Source: Patescibacteria group bacterium (lineage in GTDB: Bacteria; Patescibacteriota; Patescibacteriia; Patescibacteriales; JBAZCA01). From it: a stretch of DNA of 64,000 nucleotides. Under the pieces are notes generated by a model. It did no database searches. It had not been told where the DNA came from and saw only the letters and a program-made list of their open reading frames with translations. The stretch lies in assembly GCA_041661405.1 (NCBI GenBank), contig JBAZUL010000006.1, positions 1,681-65,680 on the forward strand, written 5' to 3'. The position numbers and the translations under genes are program-made. Below are positions 12,586 through 39,701 of this stretch, in pieces. The first letter of the stretch is position 1. Each line of letters starts with the position of its first letter.

Positions 12586-12795
12586 ATGAAAAAGAATATG
12601 AAAATAAAGCAGTTATTCTACAAATGCAAAAATTGCGGTGATGTTATTAGTGCTAATACGAATAGCCAGCTGGTTTATTGCCAATGCGGCAAGCTAGGCG
12701 TTGACGGGAATGAATTTTATGTCCGAGTAATAGGGGATAAAAAAGATTTTGAGTTGGTAAATAAGTCAAATATATATGCTGGAATTTCTGGGTAA
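12586..12795 (+). CDS. Small zinc-ribbon protein (hypothetical)
   Basis: 69 aa with CKNC ... CQC cysteine pairs. AT-rich. First gene after the ftsZ terminator. Confidence 0.4.
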   Translation: MKKNMKIKQLFYKCKNCGDVISANTNSQLVYCQCGKLGVDGNEFYVRVIGDKKDFELVNKSNIYAGISG

Positions 12796-12860
12796 AAATT
12801 CAGCCAATTACGAGCTTTTGGACAAAAAGGCCGGAAAACAGGCGGAAGAATTTCAAATTA

Positions 12861-12869
12861 GGGGGGGGG
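12861..12869 (+). repeat. G9 homopolymer tract
   Basis: Read directly: attaGGGGGGGGGctgg. Confidence 0.95.
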
Positions 12870-12980
12870 CTGGAAGGCGATGAAAACGCGGCGGAAGTCC
12901 ACGATAAGATAAACTGGAGTTTTTCTGACTATAATAATAAAGTCCGGGAAGTATTTAGCGCCATTGATTTTAGCCGGGAG

Positions 12981-14036
12981 TTGCCGGAAAAACAGAAAAA
13001 AGAAATTAAGGCACTTTTGATAAGGAGAAAGGAACTGCTGTCTAATTTGTATGATGGCGTGGAAAAAAACGGGGCGCTCGCGGAGATTGAAAAGAAAGAA
13101 TTAAATTTTGAAGCCGATCTGTTCATGGTCATGCACTGCTATTTCAGCAAACTTAAAATAAATTCAAGGAATTACACAAGAAGAACCGTAAGGGGATATA
13201 ATGGAAGAGAGAGAAAAATATACAGCGACAACCAAAGGAACGTGGCTTTGGCTGAAACCCAGCAATTTCTAGCCATGCTGATTATTGCCAGCGGCAAACA
13301 TAGTTTAGAGAGTATTACGGCTTACGCGGGCAAGATTAAAGGACTCTATTACGACGGCGGAGAGCAGGATTTATCCAAAGACGAAGAGGATGATCCGGCG
13401 AGGCAGCTGGAAAAAGGAATTTCAGGACTGGCCGCGGCTTACTATTATTATCAGTCCAAAGGCTACTCGGTTATTATTTCCAGTCCGGCAATGGATGCCA
13501 ATCAGGGAATTGATTTATTTTTGGCGGATACCAAAAGAATGCGCCATGATCATGTAGTGGAACAAAAATTTGATTTTAAAAACATGAAAACTTTGGACGA
13601 GACACCTTCCGCTTTAAGACCGTATATAACCATCGTCCAGGTTAAGTGCCACGCCGACAAGACCGGCAGGGAATCAAAAGAGTTGATTTACAGCCCTCAA
13701 CTGCTCGCGGACTACGTGGAAAAAATAAACCACCACCGGCTGATTAAATATTACGAAAAGCGCTTCGGCTCGGCCGGGGAAAACCCGCATGGCGAATCGG
13801 GAGAAAACGGCGATAAGTGGGAAGATTTTGAAGAAAAATTCAGAGAGCTGGAGTTCCCTCAAACCGTTAAGATTGAAGATTTGGAGATACCGAGTGGCTT
13901 TTGCGCGCGGTATATTGATCTAAAAATGAAAGATGCCAAAGAACTCATTGATTCGGCTGGCGTGGCAGACCGGGGTTGGAACGATATTCATCAGGAAAGA
14001 GTGATCGGCCGGGCGATTTATCCGGTTAAGAGGTAG
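12981..14036 (+). CDS. PD-(D/E)xK (Mrr-cat-like) nuclease-fold protein; probable real start ATG 12776, separated by a frameshift at the G9 tract
   Basis: The pattern E...GY-x-V...D-x-x-GIDLFL ... ITIVQVKCH matches the restriction-endonuclease-like core (D ... (D/E)xK). The tracked TTG start has 216 nt of open frame upstream with no start codon. Confidence 0.5.
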   Translation: MPEKQKKEIKALLIRRKELLSNLYDGVEKNGALAEIEKKELNFEADLFMVMHCYFSKLKINSRNYTRRTVRGYNGRERKIYSDNQRNVALAETQQFLAMLIIASGKHSLESITAYAGKIKGLYYDGGEQDLSKDEEDDPARQLEKGISGLAAAYYYYQSKGYSVIISSPAMDANQGIDLFLADTKRMRHDHVVEQKFDFKNMKTLDETPSALRPYITIVQVKCHADKTGRESKELIYSPQLLADYVEKINHHRLIKYYEKRFGSAGENPHGESGENGDKWEDFEEKFRELEFPQTVKIEDLEIPSGFCARYIDLKMKDAKELIDSAGVADRGWNDIHQERVIGRAIYPVKR

Positions 14037-14193
14037 CTGGCCGGAATTGGCGTTGTAATTGATTTTACCGCTAAAAAATGCTAATTTTAAGAAAGAAATG
14101 ATAAAGAACCGACAAGAAAATTGATGAGGAGGTTTGTGGGCTTTATGGGTTGGGGGAGGAGGAGAGTTGGAATAATAAACGGAGATTAAAAGA

Positions 14194-14952
14194 ATGTATA
14201 GAAAATTTTCAAAAGAAAATGTCTATGATTTAATAAAGAATGCATGGTCTTTTTTTTGTAGGGTGAATTATTCGCTTATTGTTGCCATTATAGCCCTGTA
14301 TTGGTCATTTCATACATATAACCAACTCATGCCCTTGAATAGGGCAAAGATTATTTTTTCGGATTCGGATATTCATATAGTCCAGGACAACAATTGTTGC
14401 AAGATGCAGAGTAAAAAATGCGACGTAGCAGTTATCAATCTAAAGAATATTGGCAAGGCTTCTGCTAAAAAAATAATTTTCAAAAGTTATGTTTTCCAGC
14501 CCGGCGAAAACAGTGCCCAAATGTTCAACGATTGGTCGGTTAACGAATTATCGCCGGAAACAAGTATGAAGATTGGCCAAATATATCTCGACCACACGGC
14601 AATAGACAATTTAAACAAAAAACAGGTTGATATTATTGGGTCAAGAGTGATATTAGCCTTTTCTTTAAAATATGAAGACGAGATAACCAAGGAGGAGATA
14701 AAAAATTATTACTTTTTTACCTATGCCTTAGGCACCCCCGATGTATATTCATTGATCGGAGCTGATTTTGAAGCCAGTAAAAGTAGTTTTATAAATGAGT
14801 TTCAACAAAAAGATGCCGATTTTTTAAGCTATATAAGGAGTATTGACCTGCAAGAAAATAAAACATTTTCAGGCTTTGGGGACAGGTTTTTAGGAAAATC
14901 TAAAAGCAAACTTGGAAGCTTGATTATTTTTTTAAAAAATTACATTAAATAA
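14194..14952 (+). CDS. Hypothetical single-TM protein
   Basis: 252-aa ORF, very AT-rich. One N-terminal hydrophobic helix (YSLIVAIIALYWSF). No motif recognised. Confidence 0.4.
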   Translation: MYRKFSKENVYDLIKNAWSFFCRVNYSLIVAIIALYWSFHTYNQLMPLNRAKIIFSDSDIHIVQDNNCCKMQSKKCDVAVINLKNIGKASAKKIIFKSYVFQPGENSAQMFNDWSVNELSPETSMKIGQIYLDHTAIDNLNKKQVDIIGSRVILAFSLKYEDEITKEEIKNYYFFTYALGTPDVYSLIGADFEASKSSFINEFQQKDADFLSYIRSIDLQENKTFSGFGDRFLGKSKSKLGSLIIFLKNYIK

Positions 14953-14962
14953 TCTTGTTTTT

Positions 14963-15796
14963 ATGCGCCGGGTAAAAAATCACACTAAAGAAAAGCTAGA
15001 TTATTTTAGGAAATATATTGAGGCTTATTTAGTGGCCACAAAAAAATTACCAATTAAATATTATATAGATGCTTTTGCCGGAACAGGTAAGTGCGTACTA
15101 TGCGGAGAAAGCTGTAGCTCTAGAGGAGGAAAAAGGTGCGTTGTGTGTGGGAAAGGTAAAATTATTGACGGTTCAGCTTTAATATCTTTAAAAACAAAAA
15201 ATCAGTTCAACGGTTATGTATTTATTGAGTTAGATGATAGGAGAATTAACAGATTAAATAAATTTATACGTGCTGAAGTAAGCGAGGAAATACTGAAAAA
15301 AATTGCTACTAAAAAGGCTGATTCAAATTTATTATTGAAGAATTTTCATCAATTTGTTTCTCCGTACGCCGGATGCTTGATATTGCTAGATCCTGAAGGT
15401 CCGGAATTACTTTGGGAAACCATAGAATATTTGTCTAAAATTAAAAAAGCCGAATTATTGATATTGTATCCGTATGATATGTCTTTAGTTAGGTTGACAA
15501 AAGATTACGGCGATAAGTTAGATAGATTTTATGGCACGGCTGAATGGTCGAAAATTTATAATGACAAAAACAATATAAACGCAGACTCAACTAAAAATAG
15601 ATTATTGGAATTTTATTGTGGTAATTTAAAAAAATTGGGTTTTGAATATGTGGTTTATAAGCAGATACGAAGAAAATTAAGGGACGGGAAGCCTCTATAT
15701 CATTTTATTTTAGCCACCCACCACCATGCAGGAGAAAAAATTATGAAAGATATTTTTAATAAGGAGCTTGACGGGCAAACTAAAATGAAATTTTAA
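14963..15796 (+). CDS. TcmP-like (three-Cys-motif partner protein family) with SAM-methyltransferase-like motif and an inserted zinc ribbon
   Basis: The N-terminus HTKEKLDYFRKYIEAYL...YIDAFAGTGKC resembles TcmP (TIGR04474, recalled from memory). DAFAGTG resembles MTase motif I. The CVLC..C...CVVC insertion follows. Confidence 0.55.
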   Translation: MRRVKNHTKEKLDYFRKYIEAYLVATKKLPIKYYIDAFAGTGKCVLCGESCSSRGGKRCVVCGKGKIIDGSALISLKTKNQFNGYVFIELDDRRINRLNKFIRAEVSEEILKKIATKKADSNLLLKNFHQFVSPYAGCLILLDPEGPELLWETIEYLSKIKKAELLILYPYDMSLVRLTKDYGDKLDRFYGTAEWSKIYNDKNNINADSTKNRLLEFYCGNLKKLGFEYVVYKQIRRKLRDGKPLYHFILATHHHAGEKIMKDIFNKELDGQTKMKF

Positions 15797-15843
15797 TCAA
15801 TCTGGATTTATGGTACAATATTAATAACGATCCACCACCCCCC

Positions 15844-16674
15844 ATGCTTAAAATTCAACGAAAATCTCTCCTTTATAAAAGCGGCGTTGAGTACGCTGAT
15901 TATTGCGTTAATCACGCGGAAGGGTGTTCGCATGGCTGTAAGTTTCCCTGCTACGCCATGAACATGAAAAAAAGATGCGGGGTGATAAAGGACTATAGCG
16001 ATTGGATTAGGCCGAAAATCGTGGAAAACGCGCTGGAGCTCTTAGACAAGGAAATTCCGAAGCTAAAAGATAAAATCAAAGTCGTGCATTTATGCTTTAC
16101 GACCGACCCATTCATGTACGGCCAGAAAGAAATTTCTGATTTATCGCTAAAAATTATAAAAAGGTTTAATCAGGATGATATTAAATGCACCGTCCTTACT
16201 AAGGGAATTTATCCGAAAGATTTGACTGATACGGATATTTACGGCAAAAATAATGAATACGCGATTACTTTGGTTTCATTGGACGATAATTTTAAAAAGA
16301 GTTTTGAGCCAGGAGCAGCGCCTTATAGGGAGCGGATAGAATCGCTTAAATATTTGCATAATAAGGGGCTGAAAACTTGGGTAAGTATGGAGCCTTACCC
16401 AACGCCTAACCTGGTAAAACAGGATTTAAAGAAAATTCTTGAAAGAATCAAGTTTGTTGATAAAATAATTTTTGGCAAGCTGAATTATAACGTTAGAGTC
16501 TCGGATTTCGGGAACAACGCGGATTTCTATGAAGAACAGGCTGATATTGTCGTGAATTTTTGCCGGAATAACGGCATTGATTATCACATTAAATATGGAA
16601 CCAAAAAAATTGACGATAAAAAAACCGAGGGGATTTTCAGGGCGACAGATAGGTTATTTAGTTTCGCGGTCTGA
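15844..16674 (+). CDS. Radical-SAM-like protein of the SPL / DNA-repair-photolyase (COG1533-like) type with variant CX3CX3C motif
   Basis: NHAEGCSHGCKFPCYA sits near the N-terminus. A downstream LCFTTDPFMYGQKE resembles the TDpYqP.E block of SplB-like enzymes. Confidence 0.5.
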   Translation: MLKIQRKSLLYKSGVEYADYCVNHAEGCSHGCKFPCYAMNMKKRCGVIKDYSDWIRPKIVENALELLDKEIPKLKDKIKVVHLCFTTDPFMYGQKEISDLSLKIIKRFNQDDIKCTVLTKGIYPKDLTDTDIYGKNNEYAITLVSLDDNFKKSFEPGAAPYRERIESLKYLHNKGLKTWVSMEPYPTPNLVKQDLKKILERIKFVDKIIFGKLNYNVRVSDFGNNADFYEEQADIVVNFCRNNGIDYHIKYGTKKIDDKKTEGIFRATDRLFSFAV

Positions 16675-16750
16675 TTATGCGGGGGCTTTAAAAATAATAT
16701 GACAAATCTTTAAATCAAAAAGCCCCTGTCAAGAACAGAGGCATTTTAAA

Positions 16751-39287: not shown

Positions 39288-39701
39288 ATGACAAGGAGAT
39301 ATAAACTGGTTAGCTACACCCTGATCGTCGGCCTCTTAGTTATGGTTTCGGCCGTCATCCTAACGTCCCGGCAACGGGCAAAGGGCCCGGACGGCGCCAT
39401 GCCCCCGGCCGGCGGCGAGAAGCTCACCGCTGATGGTTATAAAGAGAAGGCCCGGACAACGCTGGCCGGATACTCGGCAATAGCGGCTGGAGGGAATTTC
39501 ACCAGCGCGGAGATAAGTAAAATAAAGGATGATTTTCTCGCCATCAAAGGAATGCCGGGAGAATTTAAGGATCTTCACCTCCAATTAGTCATGGCCCTGA
39601 TTCAAATAGAAGACTCTTTAATAAGCGGCGACCAAAAAGCCCTGGCAGAAGGGCAAAAAAAAATTAACGAGGCCAAAGCGGCCAATATATGGCTGGAATA
39701 A
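39288..39701 (+). CDS. Hypothetical N-terminally anchored protein
   Basis: 137 aa with one TM helix (LVSYTLIVGLLVMVSAVIL). Confidence 0.4.
   Translation: MTRRYKLVSYTLIVGLLVMVSAVILTSRQRAKGPDGAMPPAGGEKLTADGYKEKARTTLAGYSAIAAGGNFTSAEISKIKDDFLAIKGMPGEFKDLHLQLVMALIQIEDSLISGDQKALAEGQKKINEAKAANIWLE

Follow-up and report, generated by a model that had tools for sequence, protein, structure and literature searches.

Why should a gene whose reading frame is otherwise intact be broken, close to its 5' end, by a single run of nine G residues? The question is raised by a locus in a 64,000-nucleotide stretch from a Patescibacteria group bacterium (contig JBAZUL010000006.1, positions 1,681 to 65,680; hereafter the window), where a first-pass annotation had described a split gene and had offered two explanations for it, either a homopolymer sequencing or assembly error or slipped-strand variation. 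We find that a closely related sister strain carries an intact version of the gene with eight G residues, and that each tract length is reproduced across assemblies. Of the two, the evidence leans towards genuine tract-length variation, since both alleles are reproducible and the conserved genes are free of indels, while an artefact now appears unlikely. On balance, we think that the tract slipped from G8 to G9 in the window lineage, so that the window holds the OFF allele of a strain-level ON/OFF polymorphism at a candidate phase-variable (contingency-type) locus.

The anatomy of the split can be read directly from the DNA. The frame that starts at ATG 12776, 20 nt inside the preceding 69-codon open reading frame (ORF), whose stop is TAA 12793-12795, opens MLEFLGKNSANYELLDKKAGKQAEEFQIRGG, crosses the G9 tract and ends at TGA 12881-12883 after 35 codons. 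The 351-codon ORF lies in the +1 frame, which is open from 12765 to TAG 14034-14036 and has no ATG, GTG or TTG before TTG 12981. Deletion of one G in silico joins the two frames into a single 419-codon ORF, 12776-14036, in which the tract is read as AGG GGG GGG (R-G-G, codons 29-31) and the junction peptide is QIRGGLEGDENAAEVHDK. The G9 run occupies nt 86-94 of the ORF and is flanked by CAAATTA on its 5' side and by CTGGAAGG on its 3' side. The first-pass annotation had described the start inside the last codons of the preceding ORF, the two frames, their limits and their fusion on removal of one G in the same way, and in these respects it was correct. Its description of a typical operon overlap applies to the 20 nt shared in the window but not to the sister strain, which has a 25-nt gap instead. 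In the public record, a 78-kb contig of a "Patescibacteria group bacterium" metagenome-assembled genome, the gene is locus WC745_02740, called as 339 aa from TTG 13017, and the Joint Genome Institute (JGI) gene call is 351 aa from TTG 12981. The public annotation of the gene is wrong, and both TTG-start products are artefacts of the frameshift.

The most informative comparison comes from the sister strain. A scan of JGI metagenome contigs returned a syntenic relative, L003, with the same gene order as the window, ftsA-ftsZ-DUF7695-gene-...-pif1, and a nucleotide identity of 88-98% block by block. At the site of the tract it reads ATTA-GGGGGGGG-CTGG, which is G8, and an intact 414-codon ORF runs from the equivalent ATG; its product begins MLESLGKSSANYELLDKK, matching the 5' fragment of the window gene. 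This is the in-frame allele expected if the gene is split by the G tract, as had been proposed. L005 and L006 (Logan assembly of SRR6214011; JGI 3300027373) are identical to L003 over 6.2 kb, and L004 (JGI 3300001881) is a fourth G8 contig. The G9 allele is reproduced in the NCBI/JGI contig, in a European Nucleotide Archive (ENA) MEGAHIT contig with 3 single-nucleotide polymorphisms relative to the window in 6.9 kb, and in a Logan contig of SRR6484324. The count is therefore G9 in three assemblies (the window, L001 and L002) and G8 in four contigs (L003-L006), with read sets that may overlap. Sequence data for the G9 strain come from SRR6484324, the library of ERZ27249449 and the source metagenome of the assembled genome, and those for the G8 strain from SRR6214011, 3300027373, 3300001881 and Ga0074197; a literature search on the sample accessions gave nothing relevant. 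L004 has two peculiarities of its own: the contig begins 4 nt before the G8 tract, i.e. the assembly broke at the tract, and in mid-gene (about 630) a separate 1-nt deletion, CCGGCAATGG to CCGCAATGG, splits the gene into 232-aa and 160-aa calls.

Comparison of the window with the sister strain shows the coding sequences of ftsA, ftsZ, pif1 and the PolB-type exonuclease gene to be free of indels; single-base coding indels between the two strains are confined to the G tract in the window and a T7 run in the sister DUF7695 gene. Because G9 and G8 are each reproducible and the conserved genes of either strain show no other indels, an assembly artefact is unlikely. Downstream of the tract, at 12870-13695, identity between the two alleles is 98.3%, the codon differences being 9 synonymous and 5 non-synonymous. 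Since G9 is the sole lesion in the window gene and 388 codons remain open, with this pattern of differences from the ON allele, the shift is probably recent or often reversed.

The homologues agree on where the gene begins. The reconstructed protein was compared exhaustively by HMMER with 1.84 billion representative proteins, which yielded 17 proteins. Of these, 14 are full-length homologues (335-386 aa), and a further one, P0010 (284 aa), is missing its N-terminus. In several, the alignment is colinear, starts near the N-terminus of the homologue and crosses the site of the frameshift. For example, P0003 is 37% identical, with query residues 7-329 aligned to its residues 6-328. Several also begin M-[LF]-E, as does the product of ATG 12776 (P0003 MLENL, P0011 MLEKL, P0005 and P0006 MFE), and none begins at the equivalent of residue 69 (TTG 12981). 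The 68-codon N-terminal extension that had been predicted is thus upheld, with homologues starting at the equivalent of 12776 and not of 12981. Judged from these alignments, the extension is ancestral and ATG 12776 is the ancestral start, from which a protein of about 415-420 aa is encoded. The family is rare and unnamed, and those members whose source is known belong to Patescibacteria or occupy AT-rich housekeeping contexts of a similar kind. A word-indexed protein search with the reconstructed protein and the family alignment A1 returned essentially only the gene itself, and an exact-pattern scan for the tract with its 5' flank in genome contigs and viral contigs gave no match. A locus search of GTDB genomes with a three-sequence alignment found no related loci, although the same alignment found loci in metagenomes.

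The structure predicted for the N-terminal region fits this start. An AlphaFold2 model built on the family alignment has a mean predicted local distance difference test (pLDDT) score of 70.8; residues 1-27 are disordered (pLDDT <50), and residues 38-62 form the first of three long confident helices (the others being 71-97 and 103-129), with block-mean pLDDT values of 80-91 for residues 31-60. The first of these helices is missing from any TTG-initiated product.

How the two alleles could have arisen can be set out simply. The in-frame allele is G8, with codons 29-31 read as given above, and in the window lineage one G would have been added by slipped-strand mispairing at replication. With G9, translation from ATG 12776 would stop after 35 codons, and the remaining 388 codons lie in the +1 frame, where the first 37 offer no start; the gene would presumably be silent in the window strain. 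With G8 and an intact gene still present in the sister strain, the locus is a tract-length polymorphism between close strains, with the sister strain presumably ON and the window OFF at what may be a hypermutable poly-G tract.

The locus has three of the features expected of a contingency locus. A G or C homopolymer of at least 7-8 nt lies near the 5' end of an ORF, its length toggles the ORF between intact (419 codons in silico, 414 in the sister strain, at G8) and truncated (35 codons, at G9), and the polymorphism separates close genomes, the flanking 5' gene sequence being 98% identical. The likeness to the poly-G contingency loci of Campylobacter jejuni, and also to Neisseria hmbR/hpuAB and the poly-A tract of Listeria inlA, lies in the 8-9 nt run within the first ~90 nt of the ORF, in a one-base change that switches between the full-length and the 35-codon product, and in the occurrence of ON (G8) and OFF (G9) alleles in closely related strains. 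In diverse prokaryotes, a homopolymer at the 5' end of a gene can serve to inactivate that gene reversibly (PMC2831843). In C. jejuni, tracts of G8-G11 change at rates of 1e-4 to 1.6e-3 per division, insertions being favoured at G8 (PMC8355987), and the G8-to-G9 direction proposed here is the one favoured in that organism. A G9 tract in the window strain would, by analogy, be expected to revert at a high rate.

The tract itself is compositionally odd. It is the only G or C run of at least 7 in the window, where G/C runs of 3, 4, 5, 6, 7, 8 and 9 number 990, 212, 35, 7, 0, 0 and 1; extrapolated by eye from the roughly five-fold decay, a G9 would be expected well under 0.1 times per 64-kb window, yet about once per ~1 Mb genome. 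The codon pair GGG-GGG is used in none of the 129 Gly-Gly pairs of the window's long ORFs (about 4 expected), and GGG accounts for 18% of the Gly codons, AGG for 16% of the Arg codons. In the AlphaFold2 model, the tract sits at the border of the disordered N-terminus and the first confident helix. A G tract is absent from the equivalent site in all three homologues read at the DNA level, and Gly-Gly occurs at the corresponding columns in no aligned homologue; the tract is therefore not required by the protein.

Other homopolymers were also inspected. Some 30 further runs in the window (at least 6 G/C or at least 8 A/T, including A8/A9 and T8/T9) show no comparable gene split. The open-frame test flagged an A9 run at 39655-39663, near the end of a 137-aa ORF, where deletion of one A would fuse it with the following 251-aa membrane-protein ORF. 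This was judged to be not a second split gene but probably two neighbouring genes, the downstream one having an ATG of its own just after the stop. Among the homologues, the gene of P0005 (32% GC) contains an in-frame A9 run of Lys codons at L009 340-348, nt 43-51 of the gene, nearly the same distance from the start codon as the G tract.

Several observations weigh against a phase-variable locus. Within-population heterogeneity or switching of tract length is the defining property of phase variation; the alleles here are those of consensus assemblies, in which the break of L004 just before the tract is the one indirect hint of such switching. Those sharing an allele may stem from overlapping read sets, which limits their independence, and tract length follows lineage, all G9 contigs belonging to one strain and all G8 contigs to the other, as would be the case for a fixed mutation. 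The homologues with readable contigs sit among housekeeping genes (alaS, lspA, tsaE, tyrS), not in the surface or restriction-modification setting usual for contingency loci. There is also a single such tract in 64 kb, without the "phasome" of known systems, and the level extrapolated for chance is itself close to one G9 per ~1 Mb genome. The host, moreover, is an uncultured Patescibacteria bacterium, and no report of phase variation in Patescibacteria, or the candidate phyla radiation (CPR), was found in the literature searched. A stronger form of the proposal would be a true contingency locus in Patescibacteria, in which a poly-G tract is maintained at the 5' end of a lineage-restricted gene, possibly with a nuclease fold, beside a variable island and switching within populations, with the T7 run of the sister DUF7695 gene as a second switch in a two-gene unit. 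We regard this form as speculative and rather unlikely.

Another potential reason for the split is that the window gene is a young pseudogene, a dispensable gene permanently inactivated by a one-off G insertion, the tract being a mutational weak point with no role in switching. The fixed tract length within each lineage and the rarity of the family (17 matches among the representatives searched) would fit, and so would the separate deletion in L004 and the T7 frameshift of the sister DUF7695 gene, seen in three contigs, from which homopolymer indels may be a general route of gene loss in the region. However, no second lesion has accumulated in 388 codons, and the excess of synonymous over non-synonymous differences from the ON allele fits purifying selection until very recently. 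G9 is also expected to revert readily (PMC8355987), so that an inactivation called "permanent" is difficult to defend as long as the ORF is otherwise undamaged. We consider this explanation a minority possibility, though one to be taken seriously. A decaying pseudogene, with several lesions or relaxed constraint, was rejected on the same counts of lesions and substitutions.

A systematic homopolymer error, by which a true G8 genome would have been given an extra G in sequencing or assembly, is less probable again. Sequencers are known to have trouble with poly-G, some reads may be common to the three G9 assemblies, and the break in L004 indicates that assemblers struggle at this point. But three different assemblies agree on G9 and four sister-strain contigs on G8, the two strains differ by no coding indel across the four conserved genes named above, and the other long homopolymers of the window carry no comparable frameshift. 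Consensus calling also tolerates a minority of indel reads.

It is improbable, too, that the G9 allele still gives the full-length protein by recoding, either through RNA polymerase slippage yielding some G8 transcripts or through a +1 slip of tRNA-Gly on GGG GGG G. Transcriptional slippage rescues homopolymer frameshifts in some bacteria, a precedent best documented for A/T runs of at least 9. As in the endosymbiont poly-A, insertion-sequence (IS) element and dnaX-type cases, a long homopolymer lies at the frameshift between two otherwise intact frames; perfect re-pairing after a +1 shift is possible on the tract, and the downstream ORF is fully intact. In contrast to those cases, the tract is G rather than A/T and the shift is not conserved in relatives, the sister strain being in frame at G8 and the homologues whose DNA was read lacking the tract, which argues against programmed recoding. 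There is also no stimulatory RNA structure, the downstream 120 nt folding no better than shuffled sequences (z = -0.35), and the A-site offers no rare or stop codon, the next 0-frame codon being GCT. A programmed frameshift or programmed transcriptional slippage gene was rejected for lack of both a conserved site and a stimulatory element, and whatever product arose in this way would probably reach only a small part of the normal amount.

Least credible of all is a functional truncated protein made in the window strain from TTG 12981 or TTG 13017: the JGI and NCBI gene callers chose these starts and a GGGAG motif lies immediately upstream of TTG 12981, but the motif abuts the TTG without a spacer, promoter and terminator signals looked for at the gene were at chance level, and the missing 68 residues are kept in every full-length homologue and include what is modelled as the confident helix 38-62, beside helices 71-97 and 103-129.

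What the gene encodes is a separate matter, on which the first-pass label of an Mrr-like nuclease was not supported. The protein had no match in Pfam or NCBIfam at E values up to 1, and none of the 17 family members matched any Pfam family, Mrr_cat (PF04471) included. Single-sequence and profile searches of PDB sequences were also negative, and PADLOC gave nothing meaningful for the protein, the one match being to GajB at chance level (16 bits). Membership of the Mrr family gained no support from profile comparison either, in which the C-terminal-half family alignment (A3) matched E. coli Mrr (EcoKMrr) with an hhalign probability of 0.09% (E 0.59). Foldseek searches of the PDB with the full-length model and with a domain model (domain pLDDT 76) returned nothing below E 0.28, and hence nothing significant. 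Nothing shows the gene to be an Mrr-type restriction enzyme, and the functional label is corrected here.

There are, nevertheless, hints of a fold. The family motifs in alignments A1 and A3 are AExQQY, GxxGLxxAYxYY, an Asp pair D240/D246 (DAxxxTDL) and an invariant Q288-x-K290 (VQVKCH), and in the models D246 and Q288-x-K290 fall on predicted strands. Together, D246 and Q288/K290 recall the D...QxK variant of the PD-(D/E)xK site, a variant attributed to Mrr. In likeness to the Mrr/Mrr_cat (PF04471) type IV restriction endonucleases, D246 is placed at the start of a beta-strand and Q288-x-K290 in a later strand; unlike them, the N-terminal half is modelled as long helices without a match to a known DNA-binding domain. 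Against the BFVD predicted viral structures, the best matches of low root-mean-square deviation were of PD-(D/E)xK type, namely a NOV_C-like protein, a "PD(D/E)XK endonuclease" entry and PfWMP3_05, with probabilities of 0.30-0.77 and deviations of 3.4-5.3 A over about 90-100 residues; these matches are weak, all with E at least 0.36 and query-normalised template modelling (TM) scores of 0.22-0.25. The domain model superposes over that length on several phage PD-(D/E)xK proteins (NOV_C/DUF3883-like, and the BFVD "PD(D/E)XK endonuclease domain"), but at the same poor E values and TM scores. A restriction-endonuclease-like core is possible on these models, as a lead and not as an assignment. The features of the locus are collected in Table 1.

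Table 1. Coordinates, in the window, of the split gene, its parts and the gene upstream of it
Feature	Position	Strand	Basis or remark
Upstream 69-codon zinc-ribbon gene, DUF7695	12586..12795	+	Pfam PF24749, E 7e-13; 20-nt overlap with the true start of the split gene
5' fragment: ancestral ATG 12776, 28 native codons, G tract, 4 out-of-frame codons, TGA 12881	12776..12883	+	Homologue N-termini, sister allele
G9 homopolymer, frameshift site	12861..12869	+	G9 also in L001 and L002; G8 in L003, L004, L005 and L006
Rest of the gene in the +1 frame, 388 codons and stop; holds the surrogate starts TTG 12981 and TTG 13017	12870..14036	+	ORF reading, gene calls
Codons 32-68: coding in homologues, upstream of any start codon in the G9 allele	12870..12980	+	Alignment A1; most of predicted helix 38-62
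Conserved alpha/beta core with (near-)invariant D240, D246, Q288 and K290	13473..13646	+	Alignments A1 and A3; structure models

The surroundings of the gene differ between the two strains in other ways. In the sister strain the DUF7695 gene is frameshifted at the T7 run (L003 5865-5871; L005 and L006 2365-2371), and one fewer T would restore ...LVFCQCGKLG...; the window reads TTTATT at 12674-12679 and has an intact DUF7695 gene of 69 aa. Of the two neighbouring genes, then, a homopolymer disrupts one and only one in each strain. A link between the DUF7695 family and the split gene was considered and rejected, as the homologues looked up have alaS or lspA upstream instead. Identity along the split gene is also uneven. 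Its first 920 nt are 98% identical between the strains, above ftsA (88%) and ftsZ (90%), while its last ~110 codons (13696-14036 against L003 6920-7245) are only 74-78% identical, with 27 non-synonymous and 3 synonymous codon differences, plus indels, at 13873-14036. This mosaic pattern suggests recombination or a rapidly diversifying C-terminus.

In the window, the split gene lies between ftsZ/DUF7695 and a strain-variable island that separates it from pif1 (window 14166-16749, L003 7375-8997). The window version of the island encodes a 252-aa unknown protein, a TcmP "three-Cys-motif partner" protein (TIGR04474, E 5e-44; PADLOC candidate PDC-M41A, E 7e-33) and a radical S-adenosylmethionine (SAM) protein, and that of the sister strain an unrelated 191-aa ORF and a weakly DUF3800-like 259-aa protein.

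As a phenomenon, this is of an ordinary and well-known kind, a homopolymeric-tract frameshift polymorphism, unusual only for its host and its uncharacterised product. Its practical value lies in a corrected gene model, with its start at 12776 and a flag for a frameshifted or phase-OFF gene, and in the natural ON/OFF pair (G8/G9) that it provides for a rare and uncharacterised protein family of Patescibacteria. If tract lengths proved to be mixed within populations, homopolymer phase variation would gain an example in a large uncultured radiation for which the literature searched describes no stochastic gene switching. Should the stronger form of the proposal be true, the gene would be the first of the phase-variable kind to be described from these bacteria, which are ultra-small and probably episymbiotic.

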